Virus record (IMG/VR): IMGVR_UViG_3300031992_000038
Coordinates: 32,001 to 96,000 of that record
Strand: one strand, 5' to 3'
Origin: a virus
Taxonomy: Duplodnaviria; Caudoviricetes
DNA length: 64,000 nucleotides
A program made the translations under genes and the position numbers. The notes below the pieces were generated by a model that had not been told where the DNA came from, did no database searches, and was given only the letters and a program-made list of their open reading frames with translations. Of this stretch, positions 3,544 through 64,000 are shown piece by piece. The number at the start of each line of letters is the position of its first letter. Within the stretch, counting starts at the first letter, position 1.

Positions 3544-4263
3544 ATGGACTACAAAGAAAAGTATGAACAAGGTCTTGAATGTATTCAAGAGATACTGTGT
3601 GGTGCCGGTGACTCAATCAAGACATCTATATTAAGAAAAAGATTACAACCTTTCTTCCCAGAACTCCAAGAGTCAGAAGACGAGAGGATAAGGAAAGCAC
3701 TCATTGAATATTTTGAAGAACAATGTGATATGAGTGATTGGAACGGTGTTTATGGCTATCAAGTTCTTGCTTGGCTTGAAAAGCAAGGCATACAACCAAC
3801 CGACAAAGTTGAATCAAAGTTCAAGGTTAGGGATTGGATTACTAATGGACATTATACTCGTTTAATTGTTGGAGTTAATTCAAGGCATTATCAATTTAAG
3901 AATGGGGATGCTAAGTACATAGATGATATAGACAAAAATTATCACCTTTGGTCAATCGCTGACGCAAAAGACGGTGATGTACTTGTCGCTTCCGATGGTT
4001 CAATCTTTCTTTTTGCAGGCGTTGATGATTGTGCTTGTAAGTATTATGTCGCACTTACAACCGACAACTATGTTAAAATCAATTATGTTAAAATCAATAA
4101 AGAAGTAGATAGTGGATATTGGGAAACGTCAAAAGCAGTCCATCCAGCCACCAAAGAGCAACGAGACCTGCTTTTTTCAAAAATAAAAGAAGTTGGCTAT
4201 GCTTGGGATGATGAGAAGAAAAAACTGTCATATATAAAGTCAATAAAACGACTAACGAACTAA
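3544..4263 (+). CDS. modular phage protein (FPEL-ESED/WLEKQG family)
   Basis: FPELQESEDERIRKALI, WLEKQG, WSIADAKDGDVL, HPATKEQRDLLF shared with 5189 and/or 6497. Confidence 0.75.
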   Translation: MDYKEKYEQGLECIQEILCGAGDSIKTSILRKRLQPFFPELQESEDERIRKALIEYFEEQCDMSDWNGVYGYQVLAWLEKQGIQPTDKVESKFKVRDWITNGHYTRLIVGVNSRHYQFKNGDAKYIDDIDKNYHLWSIADAKDGDVLVASDGSIFLFAGVDDCACKYYVALTTDNYVKINYVKINKEVDSGYWETSKAVHPATKEQRDLLFSKIKEVGYAWDDEKKKLSYIKSIKRLTN

Positions 4264-12203: not shown

Positions 12204-15200
12204 ATGAAAAAATTTGCAAACCTCCAGAAGGAGGTAAAGACTGTCAAATTTGGGCTTAAGCCAATTGGAATGACAGAAAAGTTCATCAAGGATAGAGGTC
12301 TCCTTGACGCGCAGTATTCAATCAACGACAGACTGGAAGAGGCGAAACTGGTCCTTGACCGTGTATATCTCGATGTCCTCAGCCGAAGTATGTCGTCCAT
12401 TGACCCGAAAATCGCTGACGGGTTGTATGACGTGTGGCTGAAAGACCAGAAAAAGTTCACTAACAGCAATGAGTTCAATTCCGCTAAAGATACATTTGTT
12501 GGCAAAATTAAAGGATATATTAGAGAACTAATTAAAACCGAGAAAGAAAATTATGACTTTAATGTCAATAATATCCTAAACGATATAGACACCTTCTGCG
12601 GTGGGGATGATGTCTTAAAGAGCGAACTACACAGCATTAAGAATGACTTTAGCGGACGTTCAGCTTATTTCACGGAATATTGCACCAGCAAAAACCCTGC
12701 ATTGTTCGGAACCGAAACAAATTCTTCCTCATATCGTGTCTTTAATGAGAACCTTGTGACATTCTTCAAGAATGTGAAAGCGTTCCGCTCAATCAGTCCT
12801 GATCAAATGACGACGGTTCTTAAATTTGTTGATGGTCTCGATGAAATCATGGTACCGGATAATGGTTTGAAGTATATTCTGCAATCAGACATTGACGTGT
12901 ATAATAAGGTGATTGCTGAATACGCTTCTGCGCGACAGGAACTCCAAAGCAAGGACAAGGGGTTGAGCCTTCCGAAACTTGAGAAACTCGCGAAGCAGAT
13001 TCTTTCTGAGGCCGAGAAGAAATTCCAGCCAATCGAGAGTGACGAGGAGGTGTTTTCGTTCCTGGACGAGAACATCGAAGACCTTACGTCCGCAATATTG
13101 AAACTGAAAGAGTTGTTCAGTGGGATTGGTTCGATTTATGACAAGGAGAAAATCCTGATTGCAAAGAAGGTGAAGGCTAAAAAGGATGAATTCTCCATGA
13201 TTTCGAACGCCTGCATGCATAGTTGGGACGGAATAAAGAACCTAATCATAGAGAACTGGAAGGCTGAAAATCCTAAGGGTAAGGAAAACGTAAAGGACAA
13301 GAAAGCAAACAAATTCTACAAGCAGTTAAGCAATATTTCATTGCTTGAACTTGAAAAAATCACGAACAGTGATGCGGCAACATCTTATCTGATCGGACTA
13401 GGCGAGAAGAACGACAGAGAACTTCAGGAGGCTGACCTTGCTTCACTCGCCATAAACGCTTACAACGTGTTCAAGGAAGAACACGAGAAGGGTCTTGACA
13501 AGAGACTCAAGAACATTGATAACTCAAAGAACATAAACGCATTCTTTGACACGCTGATTAGACTGAAGGACTTCATCTCCCAGATATATGTCGGAGAGGG
13601 CATAGATGACACCTGCGAGTTCTATCAGGAACTTCTTCCTGCGAAATGCAAACTCGAGGAGGTTGTCAGTGAGTGGGTAAGAATCCGAAGTTACCTCACC
13701 AAGAAGGACTACATTCAGAACGAACTGCGTGTCTATTTCGGATTGAACGCGAATTTGATGGGTGGGTGGACACACAAAGAGAATGGTGAGTTTCCAAAAC
13801 GTTCAATTATGTTCAAGGGTGTCGGGGACGATTATTATGTCGGAATTCTTGCTGGGGTTTCCAGTGCCAAAAAGATTTTAAATGGAGAAATAGGTGACGG
13901 AAGATTCCGATATCTTGACATAACAAATTATGACAAAAAGAATATCGAAAGACTTGTTCAAACTTTTTGTGGTGGCAAGAAACCAGATGAAGATGGCCTT
14001 ATTAAAGTCCTCACAAGCAAAGAATGGGCACAAAAGTACCCAAAGTTAGTTTTGGAGAAAACCGATGGGTTCAGCAGTACAGACGAAATCTATAAATCAC
14101 TTTGCCATCAAGAAATGAGATGGGTTGCATGTTCACGCGAAGCCGTAGACACGATGGTTGAGAGTGGTGATTTGTATCTCTTCAAACTTTCTTGTCGGGA
14201 TTTCAGCAAGCATTCAAAAGGTAATCCACAACTGTACACTATGTACCTGCGTGCGCTGTTAAGTGACGACAATCCGATTGGAAGATATTTCATCAATGGT
14301 AACGGAAAAATCACTTTCAGACCGAGGACAGTTGTCGACAATACAAATATTGGTGATTTCGCCATCCACAGGGCAAATTTCCCCATTGATAACAAGCGGA
14401 ACATTGAAGGCGGTGAGAAAAGTGCCACGTATCCATATGACATTGAGAAGAACAAGCGTTTCAAGTCGGATTCATGGTTCATCAGTTTACCGTTATCCGT
14501 GAACGAAGGCAAGAAAATCACCCAAAAGGAAATCAATGACCTTGTCAACGGCATGATTTCAACCGGTGAGATTAAGCACGTCATCGGTATTGACCGCGGC
14601 GAAAGGAACCTTGTCACCGTATCTATCGTGAACAAGGACACAATGGAAATCGTTGAGCAAAGAAGTCTGAACATCATCGGCAACACAGACTATAACAAAC
14701 TCATGGATGAGATGAGCGAGAACGTTAAGGATGATAGGAACAATTTGCGATTGGAAAGTTCGATGAGAAACATGTCCGAAGGTTATGTCAGCCATGCCGT
14801 GAATGAAATAGTACAACTTGTCAGGAAATACAATGCAGTAATCGCGATGGAAAACCTGGACAATCTTGGGCGCGGTAAAATCATCAAGAACATCTACACG
14901 AAGTTCGAGAACCAGTTATTGGACAAACTGTCGTTCATGGTGTTCAAGGATGTTGACAAGAACGACATTGGTGGCGTATACAATCCGCTCACGATGGCAA
15001 TAAAGAAGACGGACCAAACTAAATATGAAAAAACGTTGTCGCAGAACGGTATTGTTTTTTCGGTATTGCCTCAATACACATCAAGCATCGACCCTGTAAC
15101 TGGTTTTGCGAATGTGCTTGACATGCAGAATGTGAAGACTATTGACTCGATCAAGAAGTTCTTCTACTCATTCGACTATATACGCTATGACAAGGAACAT

Positions 15201-15824
15201 GACCATTTCGTGTTTGGCGCCGACTGGAAGAAATTCAAACTAAAGAACAGTGTAAAGGTGAATGAATTGAACAGGACCGAATGGACACTTGTGTCAAGTG
15301 GAATAAGGATCAGGTACAAAAAGACAAAGAACAGTTCGCACCGAACCATTGAGGAGCATGACCCTACTGAGGAACTCAAGAGAGCCATCGGAAGGTCTGG
15401 AAACAATTTCATGGAATGCGGAAACATCAAGAACATAATCATGAACCAGGACTCACATGACATCCTTGACGAATTCCTTGATGCGGTAAAACTGATTCTG
15501 CAGATGAGAAACAGCAAAGGGGAAGAGGACTACATCCTGTCACCGGCGCTAGACGAAAACGGAAAGCAGTTTGACTCACGTGAGCGTCATGGACAAACAA
15601 TGCCGAAAGACGGTGATACGAATGGCGCTTACAATATCGCAAGACGGGCCGTTATGCTCATCAGGAATGGTGATGACAATAAATATGACAGCAATGTGCA
15701 CTGGTTGAATTTTGCGCAAACCGAAGGAAGAATGCAAACCTTAGGTAATGTGCAAAGTACAAATTTTGACAACGAGTTCAAAACTAATGAGTTATGTTAT
15801 TCCGCATCGAAAAGGGTGGGGTAA
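12204..15824 (+). CDS. cas12a: type V-A CRISPR effector Cas12a (Cpf1), divergent
   Basis: N-terminus KTVKFGLKPIG; RuvC-I IGIDRGERNL, RuvC-II IAMENL, RuvC-III PKDGDTNGAYNIARR; YTSSIDPVTGF, ILQMRNS, DYILSP; directly upstream of a Cas12a-type array. Confidence 0.93.
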   Translation: MKKFANLQKEVKTVKFGLKPIGMTEKFIKDRGLLDAQYSINDRLEEAKLVLDRVYLDVLSRSMSSIDPKIADGLYDVWLKDQKKFTNSNEFNSAKDTFVGKIKGYIRELIKTEKENYDFNVNNILNDIDTFCGGDDVLKSELHSIKNDFSGRSAYFTEYCTSKNPALFGTETNSSSYRVFNENLVTFFKNVKAFRSISPDQMTTVLKFVDGLDEIMVPDNGLKYILQSDIDVYNKVIAEYASARQELQSKDKGLSLPKLEKLAKQILSEAEKKFQPIESDEEVFSFLDENIEDLTSAILKLKELFSGIGSIYDKEKILIAKKVKAKKDEFSMISNACMHSWDGIKNLIIENWKAENPKGKENVKDKKANKFYKQLSNISLLELEKITNSDAATSYLIGLGEKNDRELQEADLASLAINAYNVFKEEHEKGLDKRLKNIDNSKNINAFFDTLIRLKDFISQIYVGEGIDDTCEFYQELLPAKCKLEEVVSEWVRIRSYLTKKDYIQNELRVYFGLNANLMGGWTHKENGEFPKRSIMFKGVGDDYYVGILAGVSSAKKILNGEIGDGRFRYLDITNYDKKNIERLVQTFCGGKKPDEDGLIKVLTSKEWAQKYPKLVLEKTDGFSSTDEIYKSLCHQEMRWVACSREAVDTMVESGDLYLFKLSCRDFSKHSKGNPQLYTMYLRALLSDDNPIGRYFINGNGKITFRPRTVVDNTNIGDFAIHRANFPIDNKRNIEGGEKSATYPYDIEKNKRFKSDSWFISLPLSVNEGKKITQKEINDLVNGMISTGEIKHVIGIDRGERNLVTVSIVNKDTMEIVEQRSLNIIGNTDYNKLMDEMSENVKDDRNNLRLESSMRNMSEGYVSHAVNEIVQLVRKYNAVIAMENLDNLGRGKIIKNIYTKFENQLLDKLSFMVFKDVDKNDIGGVYNPLTMAIKKTDQTKYEKTLSQNGIVFSVLPQYTSSIDPVTGFANVLDMQNVKTIDSIKKFFYSFDYIRYDKEHDHFVFGADWKKFKLKNSVKVNELNRTEWTLVSSGIRIRYKKTKNSSHRTIEEHDPTEELKRAIGRSGNNFMECGNIKNIIMNQDSHDILDEFLDAVKLILQMRNSKGEEDYILSPALDENGKQFDSRERHGQTMPKDGDTNGAYNIARRAVMLIRNGDDNKYDSNVHWLNFAQTEGRMQTLGNVQSTNFDNEFKTNELCYSASKRVG

Positions 15825-42587: not shown

Positions 42588-42855
42588 AATCCTTATTTTA
42601 TATTGTTCAACTTCTGTTCCTTAATCACAACACTTAAAGGTAAGCATTTTATTTGAATTGACCAAATATAAAGTGTTAAAAATATGTTAAAAGTGTAAGT
42701 GTTAAAAATGTTAATTAACTTGCGTATGTGCGGAAAAAAACTTACCTTTCAGTGCCGATAGGGGGAGAGGCTTACCCTTGCGTGTGGGCAAAAAAAGTGG
42801 GCGCAACCATATCGGTGTGCGCCCTCTCTATCGGTGTGCGGTGCGGCGGTGCTTC

Positions 42856-43287
42856 TCAGTCTTCATTTTCCGCCTCTTCGTACTCCATATCGGCGACTAT
42901 GCTCTGAATTTCGTATTTGATACCGAATGTGCCGAATGCAGTGTAGTACCAATCTAAGCACCATTCTTGGAACTTTGCGAGGTCTTCCTCGCTTATTGTG
43001 GCATTGTCAATGCTCTCTATCACGTCATCGAACTTGCCAAAGGGCTCGACCTCGCTTCTTACAAAGTCCTTAATGTAGTCCCAATCCTCTCGGATATTCG
43101 CAAAATTGCCAATCATTCTTGTATTCTTGAGGTGGACGTACTTTCTCATATCGTCAACGATTGACTCCGCCCTAAAGTAGGCAAAATCCTCTGCAATGCT
43201 CTCCCACTGCTGATAGTCATCGGCAAGTGCGTCTTTGCACACATTGAGTACGCTCTCATAGACGTTGTCCTTATTCAAAAATTCCAT
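42856..43287 (-). CDS. cassette gene, acidic hypothetical
   Basis: 143-aa ORF behind element. Confidence 0.7.
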   Translation of the reverse strand: MEFLNKDNVYESVLNVCKDALADDYQQWESIAEDFAYFRAESIVDDMRKYVHLKNTRMIGNFANIREDWDYIKDFVRSEVEPFGKFDDVIESIDNATISEEDLAKFQEWCLDWYYTAFGTFGIKYEIQSIVADMEYEEAENED

Positions 43288-43569
43288 ATCCTTTTATTTA
43301 AGGGGTTAAACTTGTTGGGAGTGTCAATTCCCTTAACTTGACAACTGAAAGGTAAGTATAATATTTGGATTACGCAAGGACTTTAACACAATTAACACAT
43401 TGATTGATGAAATGTTAAAAACGTTAAAACACTTGTGTATGTGCTGAAAAATGCTTACCTTCAAGTGTCGCAAGACGGGGAGGCTTACCCTCCCGATAGT
43501 CGTTTGTGGGCGACAAAGACCACACCCACCCATAGGGGCGAGCGTGGTGCGGTGCGTTGTTCGGTGGTG

Positions 43570-43845
43570 TTATTTTACATCCACCTTGATATATTTGAAC
43601 TTGAACCCCTTTGGCAGTGTTGTCGTTCCCTCGGGGAGACGTCCGCCCATCAGTTGCGCAATGTAGGCGGTGTCACCCTTCTTTAGGTGCACCTCAATTC
43701 GGTTGCAGTCCACTCCGAGGACAGCGGCGGTGTCTTTGTGTCCGACCGCTGAGACAAGTCCGCTTGGAAGTTTGTCAACCTCGGTGAAAGTCACTTGTGC
43801 GGGGGTGTCAATCATTTGGAGCGAGAAAGCATTCAGAAGATACAT
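43570..43845 (-). CDS. acrIII-1: DUF1874 / AcrIII-1 family cA4 ring nuclease (anti-CRISPR)
   Basis: YLLNAFSLQM, SAVGHKDTA, NRIEVHLKKGD, RLPEG match the STIV B116/DUF1874 signature, including the catalytic GH. Confidence 0.85.
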   Translation of the reverse strand: MYLLNAFSLQMIDTPAQVTFTEVDKLPSGLVSAVGHKDTAAVLGVDCNRIEVHLKKGDTAYIAQLMGGRLPEGTTTLPKGFKFKYIKVDVK

Positions 43846-44112
43846 AATATACAATTTATAGATTAAACTTTTTGGGGTTGTCAATCCCTTAACTTGACAA
43901 ACGGAAGGTAAGTATAAAATCTGAATTGCACAAGCAAATTAACGTTTTTAACAGTTCTGTAGCAAGTATGTTAAAAGTGTTAAAGTTCTTGCAAGGTTTG
44001 GAAAAAATGCTTACCTTCAAGTGCCACCGCACGGGGAGGCTTACCTTTTCGTGTGGGCAAAAAAAGTGGGCGCAAACCCCTATCGGTGTGCGCCCCTATC
44101 GGTGGTCTATTG

Positions 44113-44349: not shown

Positions 44350-45048
44350 AATACATTATCTTTAATTGTTACACCCGTAAGGTAAGCAAAATAATCGGAA
44401 CTGACAAATTTTTCGGCAATTATTTTTACCACATTAAGATTTTTTAATAATTGTGTTAAAGTATTGTTAAAAGTGTGTATGGGTATTGCACAATCCAAAA
44501 AATTTACTTACCTTTCGGTACAATCATTAAGATAAGGTTTGTGAATTTTTGTGTGTATTATAGTAATACCGCACTTGTCCGAGAGGGATAGGTGCGGTAG
44601 TTTTTTGTTTCGGTGCGGTCTGCTGCGATGGGTAAGCCTTCCCGTCTTGCGACACTGAAAGGTAAGGAAAATTCCCCATATACGCAAGAGTTTTAACGTT
44701 TTTAACACTTCATCGTTTAATGTGTTAATTGTGTTAAAGTGCTTGCACAATCCAAATATTATGCTTACCTTTCGATACAATCGTTAAGATAAGGTTTGTG
44801 AACTTATATGTGTTCTTTCCGCACACGTCCGCGATGGATAGGTGCGGTTCTTTTTTTGTCTTGGTGCGGTTTGCGATGGGTAAGCCTCCCCGTCTTGCGA
44901 CACTTGAAGGTAAGGAAAATTCCCCATATACACAAGGCTTTTAACACTTTTAACATTTGCACTTTAACAATGTTAAAGATGTTAATTTGCTTGCATAATC
45001 CAAATAAAAGACTTACCTTTCGGTTGTAATCATTAAAGGAAAAAAGAT

Positions 45049-45636: not shown

Positions 45637-45967
45637 TGCGTCTTTATTGGGAACATACTACCGCACCCAACCGAGAGGTATATCCCGGTAGGGTGTGGCA
45701 GTACTCAAATGGGTACAATGGTGGGTGTCTTGTGGCATCCGCTTTTTTTTTTTGCGACCTTTCGCAAGGATAAGCCTCCCCTTGCTGCGCAATGGAAGGT
45801 AAGTGTTTTTTCTGACGTGTGCAAGGCTTTTAACGTTTTTAACACTTCATTCGCAAATATGTTAAAAGTGTTAATTTGCTTGCGTGTTTCAAATATTATG
45901 CTTACCTTTCGTTTGTCAAGTTAAGGGAATGACAACCCAAGAGTTTAACCATTTAAATAATAAGGAT

Positions 45968-46708: not shown

Positions 46709-47060
46709 ATCCTACCATATCCTTATATTCGGTGGACATCGCTTGTTCGGTGTCCGCCTATTTTGCGTTAGTTCGCTTTTGGAACAATTTTTAGAATTTT
46801 CCCTATGGGGATTTTTCTGAATGCCGCCAAATCAGTTCCGTTTTGGAACAATTTTAGCGAGGGTAAGCCTTCCCGTCTTGCGACATTTGAAGGTAAGCAT
46901 TTCCGGTGACATACGCAAGAGTTTTAACGTTTTTAACATTTCATCGTTTAACATGTTAATTGTGTTAAAGTCCTTGCACATTCCAAACATTATGCTTACC
47001 TTTCAGATGTCAAGTTAAGGGGGTGACCCCGCAAGTTAAACCATCTAATTTTATACGGAT

Positions 47061-47420: not shown

Positions 47421-47693
47421 ACCACCAACCAACACCAACCGATAGGGGCGCACACCGATAGGGTTGCGCCCATTTCTTTTGCCCTTGCGCGAGGGTAAGC
47501 CTCCCCGTCTTGCGACACTTGAAGGTAAGTAAATTTTCCCATATACACAAGTCTTTTAACGTTTTTAACATTTGCACTTTAACAATGTTAAAGATGTTAA
47601 TTTACTTGTGTGTCTCAAATATTATGCTTACCTTTCAATCGTCAAGTTAAGGGGAGTGACACCCCACCGAGTTTAACCTATAATAGCAATGAT

Positions 47694-48083
47694 ATGAAGA
47701 TTTTTCATTTGGTTTTGCCCACCACGGGCGAGTTTACGAAGGGCAATGTTGACACAGTGACCGCAACCGAATTGGTTGACAAGTACGACCGATGGCTTGG
47801 GGACAAGGTTAGTGATGTGCTTGCTCTTGGGATTGGGCAAAGTCTCACTTATGATGGTGTGATTATCATCTGCGTGAGTGACAAAGTTGAAACCCACAAG
47901 AAGACCTACCGCTTTGATGTGACCTATACTGCAGGGGTTGTCGTTGAGGTAGAGGCGTGCAACATCAAGGAGGCGAAAGAACTCGCCAAAAAGAAAGCGG
48001 AGCGTAATTTGACACTGACACACGAAAACGAGACCACAACAGATGTGTGGGTCGTTGATGTGACTGAGAGAGAGTTTGATTAA
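47694..48083 (+). CDS. cassette gene, two-module protein
   Basis: N-terminal ~65 aa nearly identical to 48349. Confidence 0.7.
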   Translation: MKIFHLVLPTTGEFTKGNVDTVTATELVDKYDRWLGDKVSDVLALGIGQSLTYDGVIIICVSDKVETHKKTYRFDVTYTAGVVVEVEACNIKEAKELAKKKAERNLTLTHENETTTDVWVVDVTEREFD

Positions 48084-48348
48084 CCGCACACCCATAGACA
48101 GGGCGAGTGCCACACACGGCACCGCCCATTTCTTTTGCCCTTGCGTTGGGTAAGCCTCCCCGTCTTGCGACACTGAAAGGTAAGGAAAATTTCCCACATA
48201 CGCAAGAGTTTTAACGTTTTTAACATTTGTGCTTTAACAACGTTAAAGATGTTAATTTGCTTGTGTAATTCAAATAAATTACCTACCTTCCAATCGTCAA
48301 GTTAAGGGAATGACAAACCCACCGAGTTTAACCTATAATAGCAATAAG

Positions 48349-48798
48349 ATGAAAACATTTCATTTGGTTCTCCCGACCACGGGCAATTTTACGAAGGGCA
48401 ACATTGACACAGTGACCGAGAGCGAATTGGTTGATAAGTACGATCGATGGCTTGGGGACAAGGTTAGTGATGTGCTTGCCCTTGGGATTGGGCAAAGTCT
48501 AATCTACGATAGTGTGATTATCATCTGCGTGAGCGGAAAAGTCGGTTATAAATGGTCGTGCAAGTGCTCTGATGGTGGTTACACGGATGAGAGCGATAAG
48601 GTCTACAAGACCGAGACAGAGGCATACAACGCAATGCGCGATGCCGCACTGACCAAAATGAAGTGGAACACCGAGCGAGACGAGGAGGTGAGTGAGTTCG
48701 GTTGTGTGACCTATGAGGTCATCTTCAGACCGAACGAAATCATTCACAAGTCCTTCAGCGGCACATACACGTACCGCGTTGAACCTTCGACCTATTGA
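48349..48798 (+). CDS. cassette gene, two-module protein
   Basis: Same N-module as 47694, unrelated C-module. Confidence 0.7.
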   Translation: MKTFHLVLPTTGNFTKGNIDTVTESELVDKYDRWLGDKVSDVLALGIGQSLIYDSVIIICVSGKVGYKWSCKCSDGGYTDESDKVYKTETEAYNAMRDAALTKMKWNTERDEEVSEFGCVTYEVIFRPNEIIHKSFSGTYTYRVEPSTY

Positions 48799-49030
48799 CT
48801 TTCGTCAACACCGCAAGGTGGGCGAGTACCACACACGGCACCGCCCATTTCTTTTGCCCTTGCGCGAGGATAAGCTCCCCCTTGCTGCGCAATGGAAGGT
48901 AAGCATTTTTCTTGACGTGTGCAAGCCTTTTAACGTTTTTAACACTTCTGTAGCAAGTATGTTAAAAGTGTTAATTTGTTTGCGTGTCTCAGTTTTTTTG
49001 CCTACCTTCTGAATATAATCTTCAAGGTAT

Positions 49031-49624: not shown

Positions 49625-50162
49625 TGGGTTTTTAACTTGACAATGCGGGCGCACACCGAACAAGGGTTGCGCCCATTTTTTGCGACCTTGCGCGAGGGTA
49701 AGCCTTCCCGTCTTGCGACACTGAAAGGTAAGCAAAATTCTTCACATACACAAGAACTTTAACACTTTTAACACTCACACTTTTAACACATTTTTAACAT
49801 TAAAAATTTGGTCAATCCAAAAAGTTTTCTTACCTTACAGATGTTGAGAGAGGGATACAACCTCAAAGGGCAAGGATGAAACCTTGGAGTATATTTTCCA
49901 TCGCGCCCTATTGTGTAATCTTTAATGTTTCTTTTTTTGTAACATTTTTTTAACACTTAAAATTTGCACATGTCAGATTTTTTTCTTACCTTCAAGTGCC
50001 ACCGCACGGGGAGGCTTACCTTGCACAGACGGAAAAAGATTTACATCATTAACATTCTTTAACGGAAAATATTTGGCCGTCCCAAATATTATGCTTACCT
50101 TTCAATCGTCAAGTTAAGGGGGCGACACCCCCACAAGTTAAACCTATTAAAATAATAAGGAT

Positions 50163-50726: not shown

Positions 50727-50881
50727 CGACAAAGCATCGGGGGCGCACACCGCACCGGATGCGCCCCTACATTATACTAAAAGTACTCAAATGAGTACAA
50801 CATTAACAATTATTAACACGCAAGGTATTGCACATGTCAGAAATTTTGCTTACCTTTGCCACATAACAATTTCAAAAGATT

Positions 50882-51394: not shown

Positions 51395-51681
51395 CGATAA
51401 GAGGATTTTTGTGTGTTTTTCATGGCGCCGCGCCCGTCCGCGATGGATAGGTGCGGTTTTCTTTTGCCCTTGCGCAAGGGTAAGCCTCCCCCTTGCTGCG
51501 CAATGGAAGGTAAGCATTTCAGATGACATGTGCAAGGCTTTTAACACTTTTAACCTTTGTGCTTTAACAATGTTAAAGATGTTAATTTGCTTGCACAACC
51601 CAAAAAGTTTACTTACCTTTCGTTTGTCAAGTTAAGGGAATGACACCCCACTAAGTTCAACAATCTAAATCAAGGAAATAT

Positions 51682-51984: not shown

Positions 51985-52329
51985 AACGGCACATAACGGC
52001 ATCAGACGTTAGGATGGTATAACTAATCGCCTTGGCGGGAAAACGCTCTCACAAGCAAAATGTGGGGCATTTTCCCGCTATCTGCGTCCAAATATGCACA
52101 CGGATTTATTTTGCGCCCTTGCGCGATGGGTAAGCCTCTCCGTCTTGCGACACTTGAAGGTAAGGAATTTTCCTGACATGTGCAAGGCTTTTAACGTTTT
52201 TAACATTTCAACCATCGATATGTTAATTGTGTTAAAGTGCTTGCACAATCCAAACATTATGCTTACCTTTCAATCGTCAAGTTAAGGGGATGACAACCCC
52301 ATCAAGTTCAACCATCTAAAAGCAAGAAT

Positions 52330-53420: not shown

Positions 53421-53700
53421 GCACGATTTGACTATGGGATTGATGACCGCGCCCGTCCGTGATGGATAGGTGCGGTTCTTCTTTCACCGCTGACACAAAG
53501 GTAAGCCTCCCCTTGCTGCGCAATGGAAGGTAAGCATTTTTCTGCGCATGTGCAAGTCTTTTAACGTTTTTAACATTCAATATTTCAATATGTTAAAAGT
53601 GTTAATTTGCTTGGCCAATCCAAATATTATGCTTACCTTACGGATGTCAAGTTAAGGGGGCGACACCCCCGCAAGTTCAACCATCTAATTGTAACGAACA

Positions 53701-54598: not shown

Positions 54599-54848
54599 GA
54601 AAAGCAATTCTATCGTAGTTCCGTGTGCGCTCGCCCACAACAGGGTGGGCGCATACATTTTATCCGCACCGCCGGCGCGAGGGTAAGCCTCCCCGTCTTG
54701 CGACACTTGAAGGTAAGCATTTTCCTCTACGCGTGCAAGGCTTTTAACACTTTTAACACTTCTGTAGCGTATATGTTAAAAACGTTAATTTGCTTGTGTA
54801 ATTCAGATATTATGCTTACCTTTCGTATGTAATCATTAAGGATATGGC

Positions 54849-55437: not shown

Positions 55438-55663
55438 TAACTTGACAATGCGGGCGGATGCCACACACGGCACCGCCCATTTCTTTTGCCCAAACGCAAG
55501 GGTAAGCCTTCCCGTCTTGCGACACTTGAAGGTAAGGAAAAATCCCCACATGCGCAAGTGTTTTAACGTTTTTAACATTTCATCAAACAATGTGTTAATT
55601 GTGTTAAAGTGCTTGTATAATTCAGATATTATGCTTACCTTTCGGATGTAATCATTAAAGATA

Positions 55664-56096: not shown

Positions 56097-56384
56097 ACCA
56101 CGCGACATAGGGATAAATCATGCGTAATTTATAGTTTTGGCCGCCGCACTTGTCCGAGAGGGATAGGTGCGGTTCTTCTTTCACCGCCGGCACGAGGGTA
56201 AGCCTCCCCGTCTTGCGACACTTGAAGGTAAGCATTTTCTGTGACATGCGCAAGTCTTTTAACGTTTTTAACACTTCTGTAGTGTATATGTTAAAGATGT
56301 TAATTTGCTTGCACAAACCGGAACTTTTACTTACCTTTCGTTCAGAAATCAAGGGATAATCCCAAGATATGAAAAGCGTCTGTC

Positions 56385-57306: not shown

Positions 57307-57636
57307 CAATATCCTTTTTAACTTGACTGACGTGACAGAGCGGAACCGGCAATGGCCGGTCCGCCCTGTCGGGACAGGAGCGGAACCGAAACGAGCGGTC
57401 TGCCCTGTCCCACTTTTTTGTGCCCTTGCGCGATGGGTAAGCCTCTCCGTCTTGCGACACTTGAAGGTAAGGAATTTTCCTGACATGTGCAAGGCTTTTA
57501 ACGTTTTTAACATCTCTATGTTGAATATGTTAAAAGTGTTAATTTGCTTGGCCAATCCAAATAAATTACCTACCTTCCCATTGTCAAGTTAAGGGAGTGA
57601 CACCCCGCAAAGTTCAACCCTCTATATAGTCAAGTT

Positions 57637-58178: not shown

Positions 58179-58433
58179 GCATACGGGCGGTTGACACATG
58201 TCACCGCCCATTTCATTCACCCTTTCGCAAGGGTAAGCCTCCCCGTGCGGTGGCACTTGAAGGTAAGGAATTTTCCTGACATGTGCAAGGCTTTTAACGT
58301 TTTTAACATTTGCACTTTAATAATGTTAAAAGTGTTAATTTGCTTGCATAGTTCAAATTTTATGCTTACCTTTCGTTTGTCAAGTTAAGGGAATTGACAC
58401 TCCCACAAAGTTCAACCATCTAAAATCAAGGAT

Positions 58434-59057: not shown

Positions 59058-59344
59058 TTCCATCAACAAATGGAAATAGCGACAACCGCATACAGGGCGA
59101 GTGCCACACACGGCACCGCCCGTTTCATTTGCCCACACACAAAGGTAAGCCTCCCCTTGCTGCGCAATGGAAGGTAAGCAAAATTCTCCACATGTGCAAG
59201 CCTTTTAACACTTTTAACACTTCATACATCAATATGTTAAAAAGGTTAATTTGCTTGCACAACCCAGATAAAAGGCTTACCTTTCAATCGTCAAGTTAAG
59301 GGGAGTGACACCCCCGCAAGTCCAACCATCTAAACGATGCAAGT

Positions 59345-60085: not shown

Positions 60086-60364
60086 AGACACACGCGGCGA
60101 GCAAAGCAGAGAACGGGCGGATTCCACACACACGGCACCGCCCATTTCTTTTGCCCAAACGCAAGGGTAAGCCTTCCCGTCTTGCGACACTGAAAGGTAA
60201 GCAAATTTCCCAACATACGCAAGGCTTTTAACACTTTTAACATTCAATATTTTAAAATGTTAAAAATGTTAATTTGCTTGGCCAATCCAAATAAATTACC
60301 TACCTTCCCATCGTCAAGTTAAGGGAATGACACCCCACAAGTTAAACCATCTAAATCTACGGAT

Positions 60365-61015: not shown

Positions 61016-61284
61016 AAAGGCATTGGGCAACATAGGACGGGCGGGGATTAAGTTTCCCGCCCGTTTCATTTTCTTGTCCGCAAGGGTAAGCCTCCCCGTC
61101 TTGCGACACTGAAAGGTAAGAAAAAATCCACACATGCGCAAGGCTTTTAACACTTTTAACATTTCACATTTCGATATGTTAAAAATGTTAATTTGCTTGG
61201 CCAATCCAAATAAAATGCTTACCTTTCAATCGTCAAGTTAAGGGAATGACACCCCATAAAGTTCAATCCATAAAATGAAATAAT

Positions 61285-62620: not shown

Positions 62621-62900
62621 TCGTTTGCGTTTTTAGATGGTGTGTGGCGGAATGGTAACGAATCCATCCGCCACGCTTTTTTCGTCCTCACCGCAAAGGT
62701 AAGCCTCCCCGTGCGGTGGCACTTGAAGGTAAGAAATTTCCGTGAAATGCGCAAGTTAATTAACACTTTTAACATTTCAACTTTTAACAAATTTTTAACA
62801 CAATATATTTGACCATTCCAAATAAAATGCTTACCTTTCAATCGTCAAGTTAATGGGAGTGACACCCCCGAAAGTTCAACCATCTAAAAGCAGAACAACA

Positions 62901-63866: not shown

Positions 63867-64000
63867 TGTGTTCCGCGACCTATTGGGCGAGTGCCACACA
63901 CGGCACCGCCCATTTCATTCGCCCTTGCGCGTGGATAAGCCTCCCCGTCTTGCGACATTGGAAGGTAAGAATTTTTCCTGACATGCGCAAGTTAATTAAC

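Follow-up and report, generated by a model that had tools for sequence, protein, structure and literature searches.

The DNA analysed here, referred to as the window, is the whole stretch of 64,000 nucleotides that covers bases 32001-96000 of a single viral record of 115,873 bp. CheckV estimates a completeness of about 32% for this 116-kb record and of 32-44% for related records of 125-160 kb, and the former value makes a jumbo phage of about 350 kb probable. Two thirds of the genome thus lie outside the record, and at this completeness the lack of a gene from it says little. The phage is uncultured; it encodes a T4-type portal (PF07230, 4.9e-78) and a T4-type TerL N-domain, and its largest open reading frames specify 1,206 and 956 aa. 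The longer product is a Cas12a-like protein (12204-15824, plus strand; Pfam RuvC_1, NUC and REC1). This is a large phage of the rumen type, and the promoters of the gene array described below are of the Bacteroidetes type.

Small early genes are organized as an array of cassettes on both strands at 42258-64000, which runs about 7 kb past the window end to about 103 kb of the genome. Genes and cassettes flip their orientation at about 44.4 kb, pointing leftward on its left and rightward on its right. Altogether 31 cassettes are found within about 30 kb, in a plastic region of small ORFan genes. Ten of the cargo proteins have either no PHROG match or unnamed ones only, a homologue search with the 460-aa protein flanking the array returned only this protein itself, a blastn comparison of 7.9 kb of the array with GenBank phages gave no match, and three of five exact-protein look-ups were without a match. 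According to the gene table of strain contig L163, a 91-aa gene at 43570-43845 (minus strand) carries PF08960; as this is the AcrIII-1 ring-nuclease family (STIV_B116-like/DUF1874), the array contains anti-defence cargo.

Each cassette is an intergenic unit of about 200 bp, and a short segment that we call the core is always one part of it. Read along the genes, the order is the intrinsic, GC-rich terminator of the preceding gene with its T-run, a CCC..GGG palindrome, the core (on the opposite strand), an outward-facing promoter arm, a set of boxes, the gene-facing promoter arm, the leader, and the start codon. In the cassette used here as an example, the gene-facing arm CTTG-N20-TACCTTTC at 43349-43378 (minus strand) stands upstream of the leader and of the gene at 42856-43287 (minus strand), and the leader GTCAAGTTAAGGG starts at the predicted +1. 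An AT-rich spacer at 43379-43431 contains the TTAAC and the GTTAA box twice each, such that either arm is preceded by one pair of boxes. Beyond it the outward, or mirror, arm CTTG-N20-TACCTTCA at 43432-43461 (plus strand) reads into the core at 43454-43489 (plus strand), which the 91-aa gene mentioned above faces from the other side.

The initial annotation had described these elements as pseudo-palindromes with CTTG-N20-TACCTT on both arms, of which the arm facing away from the open reading frame reads into the core, and both points hold up in numbers. The motif CTTG-N(18-22)-TACCTT matches the window at 47 places, compared with 0.45 +/- 0.64 in shuffled sequences, and most of these matches (at least 20) are opposite-strand pairs offset by exactly 83 nt. 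Orphan cores do not occur in the record: each of the 31 follows directly downstream of a promoter-like arm. While 28 of the 31 core-bearing arms stand back to back with a gene promoter, three promoter and core units share the gene direction; two of these form a tandem with a normal promoter that lies about 110 nt further downstream, and the third is the second copy of a tandem core. Since the core follows a promoter arm in every orientation, it is tied to the arm and not to the terminator or to gene direction. Strong intrinsic terminators are confined to the gene strand, where they immediately precede the promoter modules. Could the 113-nt pseudo-palindrome instead form one long hairpin? We rejected this option: apart from the boxes, CTTG and CTTACCTT the arms do not match, the consensus of their spacers differs, and two protein-read promoters fit this better than a folded element.

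The core, CTTACCTT..GGAGGCTTACC, occurs in 25 copies in the window and, with a loose pattern, in 31 copies in the 115,873-bp record. In the example it is the 36-base sequence CTTACCTTCAAGTGTCGCAAGACGGGGAGGCTTACC, with an outer stem formed by 43458-43462 and 43479-43483, an inner stem-loop at 43466-43477, a GCTTACC repeat at 43483-43489, and a predicted +1 at 43467/43468. The window holds the four variants read initially, in identical numbers. The example belongs to the commonest one, GTC-GCAA-GAC (15 copies), whose other copies all lie on the minus strand at 44631-44666 (with GGGAAGG as 3' arm), 44879-44914 (with a different arm and 5' flank in strain L163), 46862-46897, 47494-47529, 48149-48184, 49697-49732, 52129-52164 (three arm and core alleles among strains), 54682-54717, 55501-55536, 56197-56232, 57436-57471, 60166-60201, 61085-61120 and 63934-63969. 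TTGC-GCA-GCAA is found five times, again on the minus strand, at 45769-45803, 48869-48903, 51479-51514, 53500-53534 and 59144-59178. The four copies of GTGC-CACC-GCAC lie at 44010-44045 (plus), 49985-50020 (plus; a forward, tandem promoter and core unit 109 nt upstream of the normal gene promoter), 58232-58267 (minus) and 62698-62733 (minus), and the single CC-GATA-GG at 42741-42776 (plus). Beyond the window the record adds GTGC-TGCC-GCAC, TTGC-GCA-GCGA, a second CC-GATA-GG and a tandem double core.

Two of these outlying arrangements deserve a description. At 3308-3475 of L161 (genome 97308-97475) a symmetric module bears a core on both arms (GTGC-TGCC-GCAC and TTGC-GCA-GCGA), with an ordinary gene promoter 108 nt further on. 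At 4182-4247 of the same stretch (genome 98182-98247, minus strand) the 30-nt core unit is duplicated in tandem, in the order promoter, core, core, which suggests slippage or unequal exchange between CTTACC repeats.

On the gene side, the cassettes continue into either a leader with a conserved GTCAAGTTAAGGGAATGACACCCC..AAGTTCAACC or an alternative short leader. The conserved form is present at 47635-47700 (plus) and at about 25 other sites, for example 43290-43348 (minus) and 58373-58433 (plus), and once in the related phage L146, at about 7030 on the minus strand. It can form GTCA/TGAC and GGG(G/A)..(C/T)CCC stems and is a candidate pseudoknot; its second stem varies in length and exchanges GGGG..CCCC for GGGA..TCCC. 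The core itself might be regarded as a decayed gene leader, an idea that we discarded when local alignment scored no better than shuffles (P = 0.19-0.75). A small open reading frame behind the core was likewise rejected: the ATG in AAAGAAATGGGCGG stems from the terminator T-run and is unconserved, being GTG, ACG or absent elsewhere.

A few units of the array are devoid of a recognizable gene. Two tandem 'empty' units at 44486-44610 and 44743-44860 (plus strand) run from a full promoter over about 85 nt to a strong terminator and hold no plausible open reading frame; they are candidates for small RNAs or for cassettes whose gene has been lost. At 49808-49900 (plus strand) and at genome 99707-99800 and 102856-102950 a promoter is followed by a non-coding motif (..GGGCAAGGATGAAACCTTGGAGTATA..), and a similar motif also stands behind promoters in the related phages L111, L146 and L149. 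To judge by this recurrence it may be a conserved phage small RNA; it has no Rfam match at the gathering score.

Is the outward arm a promoter at all? Bacteroidetes sigma-A promoters are of a distinct type, with TTG at -33 and TAnnTTTG at -7 (PMC9723704), and the cassette promoters match this type as TTG-N19/20-TAnnTTTG. The 30 outward arms compared all share the GTTAAAA box, CTTG and CTTACCTT without a single change, in contrast to many variable positions in the spacer, and the alleles found in other strains likewise keep box, CTTG and CTTACCTT over a varying spacer. When arms were scored with a weight matrix built from 50 gene promoters of related phages, with the hexamers masked, outward arms reached -12 and gene arms +14 against a background of -59 +/- 17. 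A spacer of the outward type also occurs in the promoter ahead of a real gene at 50828. This promoter-type conservation, together with the likeness to gene promoters of relatives, indicates that the outward arm most probably works as a promoter. Part of the invariance of its motifs could be due to gene conversion between copies and not to selection on each copy.

The likely position of transcription initiation places the core in a new light. In Flavobacterium the sigma-A -7 box spans -12 to -5 (PMC9723704), and our predicted +1 positions are transferred from there to the host of this phage. For the gene-facing arm the predicted +1 is the G of GTCAAG, exactly where conservation of the leader begins after four variable bases, and this coincidence supports the transfer. 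For the outward arm the same rule puts +1 at core base 15, or at base 14, which is a purine; both lie within the 5' half of the inner stem, and the 5' half of the outer stem, CCTTC, is the -10 box itself. With +1 inside the hairpin, an outward RNA could hold at most 2-3 bp of the inner stem and not the whole hairpin. The -10 box is then repeated exactly (GCTTACC) 30 nt downstream, at about +19 to +24 from the predicted start. We dismissed the idea that this second GCTTACC belongs to a full second promoter, as there is no consistent TTG 19-21 nt upstream of it.

How real is the hairpin? RNAfold predicts -5.0 to -12.4 kcal/mol for the outward strand of the 18 distinct cores and 0 to -7.3 kcal/mol for the opposite strand, and one shared G-U pair accounts for much of this difference; DNA parameters yield only modest values of -0.8 to -5.7 kcal/mol. 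Shuffling the variable insert between fixed arms gave P = 0.27, 0.058, 0.053 and 0.39 for four independent variants, and the insert alone gave P = 0.05, 0.31, 0.05 and 0.15, which combine by Fisher's method to about 0.04 and 0.02, respectively. Three of the five loops are of the G..A kind (GCAA, GCA and GATA) and all five are closed by C-G, a loop pattern whose chance occurrence we estimate at about 0.002. Loops of this kind, G..A with a C-G closing pair, mark mini-hairpins of unusual stability, an effect stronger in DNA than in RNA (PMC4496689). The variants differ by few substitutions that shift the register of the stem. Column-wise covariation is insignificant: double changes affect two of nine pairs, 5 of 500 shuffles reach the observed score, which is within the stated false-positive range of the tool, and the RNAalifold consensus energy is only -0.59 kcal/mol.

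The initial annotation had called the hairpin covarying, with an outer stem that pairs better on the outward strand through G-U and with extra-stable loops in three variants. The strand preference is seen in all 18 distinct sequences and the three loops are as described. The hairpin is also kept across distinct variants, if weakly so by the combined shuffle statistics, but the covariation of paired columns did not reach significance. Taken together, these sequence comparisons are suggestive, not decisive, of some constraint on a small outward-strand hairpin.

The array is not static. Strain contigs about 98% identical to the phage were obtained from exact-protein look-ups and from a scan of ENA metagenome assemblies. 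One of them, L163, is without window positions 48263-48820, that is, one gene (48310-48798, encoding 162 aa) plus half a cassette on each side, so that the cassettes holding the cores at 48149-48184 and 48869-48903 are the left and right partners of the event. Its junction lies inside a 47-nt terminator stretch common to both flanking cassettes, and a crossover in a shared terminator is what would be expected of homologous and not of site-specific recombination. At 8 of the 17 orthologous loci covered by strain contigs the arms and/or cores differ between identical flanks. The locus 58232-58267 even has three alleles, GTGC-CACC-GCAC here, GTGC-TGCC-GCAC in L170 and GTC-GCAA-GAC in L156, with the change confined to about 13 nt. 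A cassette indel and swapped arms and cores are recombination of the type known from the promoter-early stem-loop cassettes (PeSLs) of T4-type phages.

More distant relatives were found via the portal, at 60-66% identity. They have an early array of the same type, with dozens of TTG-N20-TACCTTTG promoters, each after GTTAA or TTAAC boxes, and in those examined outward arms and cores are absent from this promoter array. A covariance model built from the copies and run over 265 kb of DNA from this phage and its relatives recovered no others than the copies of the phage itself. Scans of IMG/VR for the core returned nothing with a strict pattern and single chance matches only with a loose one, an IMG/VR scan for paired arms recovered nothing but ordinary divergent promoters of unrelated contigs, and the metagenome scan for the core yielded one true match, in the near-identical strain contig L156. 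The outward promoter with its start-site hairpin is a lineage-specific addition to a shared early array.

These observations can be joined into one picture. We give about an even chance to the reading that the core is the start-site segment of a second, outward-facing early promoter and that its hairpin acts as a promoter-level control. The cassettes would provide each small early gene with its own host sigma-A promoter and terminator and would serve as homology patches across which genes are inserted, deleted and exchanged and arms and cores swapped. The outward arm would bind host RNA polymerase and fire toward the preceding terminator, and the hairpin and the GCTTACC repeat would act on the polymerase at or just after the start, possibly by sigma-dependent holding or pausing, or by a supercoil-dependent occlusion of the promoter. 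Polymerase might then be bound, paused or supercoil-gated just beyond each terminator. The outward promoter would in this case be an insulator or an antisense brake between neighbouring cassettes rather than a free source of small RNA. The role of the hairpin and the -10 repeat in polymerase control is our best guess from the arrangement of these parts. The signature of stable single-stranded mini-hairpins in the loops is used only loosely by this explanation. Firing of the outward promoters would subject every early gene to convergent transcription, a seemingly costly arrangement.

The alternative that survives best, if still an unlikely one, is that the unit is a passenger: an inverted duplicate of an early promoter with its downstream stub, functionless, spread by recombination between cassettes and with a largely accidental hairpin. 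Relatives that make do with the same promoter array but have neither outward arm nor core would fit such an origin, as would the restriction of both in our IMG/VR and metagenome scans to a single near-identical strain contig. Recombination and gene conversion between cassettes are frequent, and the hairpin is retained only marginally against shuffles, with insignificant column covariation. What speaks against a mere passenger is the pattern of divergence: the spacer has diverged, yet CTTG, CTTACCTT, the boxes and GCTTACC are unchanged in 30-31 copies and in the strain alleles, which is the signature of selection and not of drift with homogenisation. Nor is the run of C-G-closed loops, three of five of the G..A kind, easily put down to chance.

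We consider it rather improbable, although the initial annotation also offered this option, that the hairpin is recognized by a protein as single-stranded or extruded DNA, be it a virion polymerase of the N4 type, a recombinase of the attC type, a primase or a replication factor. The idea draws on the C-G-closed loops GCA, GCAA and GATA and on the G-T pairs, which are confined to the outward strand; this stable strand is the template strand for transcription in the gene direction. In N4 a C:G closing pair and a loop with 5'G and 3'A let a template-strand hairpin extrude and persist (PMC4496689), and in N4 numbering TTGC-GCA-GCAA supplies -8G, -9C, -10G, -12A and +1C. The gene for a suitable polymerase or recombinase may also be encoded elsewhere in the genome, given that the record is about 32% complete. 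On the other hand, the N4 purine at -11 is replaced by C, the commonest variant has a 4-nt loop on a 3-4 bp stem, and the energies with DNA parameters are weak. The integrase profile PF00589 had no match in the 116 kb while its controls were positive, the profile PF00940 for single-subunit RNA polymerases had none in a search whose controls were silent as well, and the large open reading frames are without a polymerase match. The only crossover that was mapped falls into the terminator, outside both core and boxes. Such a DNA hairpin would furthermore leave the conserved -33/-7 motifs of the outward arm unexplained, and it would have to account for a core that always accompanies a promoter arm, whatever its orientation to the genes.

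A third possibility, and the one put forward initially, is that about 25 loci produce a short structured RNA, acting in trans or as a cis-antisense RNA on the 3' end of the preceding mRNA. The promoter-like outward arm speaks for this, as does the sequence after the core (palindrome, A-run, reverse terminator), which is common to the cassettes. Trimming could yield a stable species from an RNA of about 95 nt that ends at the reverse-terminator hairpin, and lambda oop and P22 sar offer precedents. However, the predicted +1 within the hairpin would leave the RNA with little of it, and the outward strand has no terminator beyond the core, only the palindrome, then an A-run and the reversed gene terminator without a T-run. 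The predicted 118-nt outward transcript folds no better than shuffles (z = -0.49), Rfam 15 has no family at the gathering score over the window, with matches for one cassette at chance level 30-80 bits below threshold, and the covariation is not significant. A small-RNA reading of the core is thus not supported and is the least probable of the alternatives; as judged from these predictions, the core is probably a piece of promoter-level control instead of a small-RNA gene.

Returning to promoter-level control, a bolder form of it would hold that each early cassette has an active backward promoter whose start hairpin and -10 repeat park the polymerase or switch it by supercoiling. This is a speculative claim that we think unlikely. 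If true, host-type promoter parts would have been assembled into an insulator or antisense shut-off that is built in across the genome and serves about 30 early genes, and this would be the first sigma-dependent pause device described for a Bacteroidetes polymerase; to our knowledge, sigma-dependent pausing is undocumented for Bacteroidetes sigma-A.

In the huge Bacteroidota phages of gut and rumen, small accessory and anti-defence genes stand in long rows, and how these are expressed and reshuffled is poorly known. In this array portable promoter and terminator cassettes also act as recombination sites, and both uses can be seen in natural strain variants. If the outward promoter is active, early genes would be bracketed by convergent promoters, an unusual form of insulation or timing, and the cassettes would offer compact, testable natural parts for Bacteroides synthetic biology.

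Several known systems invite comparison. As in integrons with their attC sites, single-gene cassettes stand in a row with imperfect palindromes bearing TTAAC...GTTAA boxes. In contrast to integrons, the 116 kb of this incomplete record hold no tyrosine recombinase by the control-positive PF00589 search, relatives carry the boxes in one orientation only, upstream of ordinary promoters, and the one junction found does not fall at a palindrome core site as an attC-type boundary would, but in the terminator, upstream of core, arms and boxes.

The promoters of the N4 virion RNA polymerase are similar in being small C:G-closed hairpins with a 5'G..3'A loop, on one strand and before early genes (PMC4496689). 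N4 has three such promoters with stems of 5-7 bp, a 3-nt loop and a purine at -11, read by a giant virion polymerase (PMC4496689). Here there are 31 copies, mostly with 4-nt loops and inner stems of 3-4 bp, inside a host-type promoter. The N4 combination of a 5-7 bp stem, a C:G closing pair and a 3-nt G-R-A loop is not seen: a 3-nt loop is present in 6 of the 31 copies and has C at its centre. A virion polymerase gene (about 3,500 aa) is not seen in this partial record, which lacks two thirds of the genome.

Lambda oop and P22 sar are phage cis-antisense RNAs transcribed from single loci as defined short RNAs with their own terminators. The outward promoters resemble theirs in that each lies behind a gene and is directed at its 3' end, but they occur in 28 convergent copies that lack a terminator.

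A functional parallel for the preferred reading, in which the core controls the polymerase, might be the sigma-dependent pause. As in such pause elements, a -10-like sequence stands on the non-template strand of the initially transcribed region, oriented like a promoter -10 box. The best-studied elements, as at lambda PR', lie at +1 to +15 (PMC9191641), whereas the repeat lies at about +19 to +24 here, no Q-like factor or downstream target is evident, and the sigma factor is a Bacteroidetes sigma-A; the analogy is a functional one only.

The cassettes as a whole come closest to the PeSLs, in which strong early promoters of T4-type phages are combined with stem-loops, flank ORFans and mediate insertions and deletions by homologous recombination (Arbiol et al. 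2010, PMC2839356; Comeau et al. 2014, PMC4122927). In both, intergenic cassettes of about 100-200 bp recur in clusters amid small ORFan genes; each joins a strong early promoter of the host type, preceded by an AT-rich region, to stem-loops or terminators, and the indel endpoints of close relatives lie within the cassettes. Stem-loops of PeSLs may overlap the -10 box and contain G-T pairs (PMC2839356); the core hairpin shares this overlap with one PeSL subclass, since CCTTC of the -10 box forms its outer 5' arm, and the phage has a T4-type portal as well. What sets the array apart is a second complete promoter placed backwards at a fixed offset of 83 nt and followed by a 30-nt core that ends in a -10 repeat, promoters of the Bacteroidetes -33/-7 type, and a long, conserved and structured leader in place of a Shine-Dalgarno region. 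On this comparison the array most likely consists of expression and recombination cassettes of the PeSL type, and the principle established for T4-type coliphages would operate in a Bacteroidetes-type phage too.
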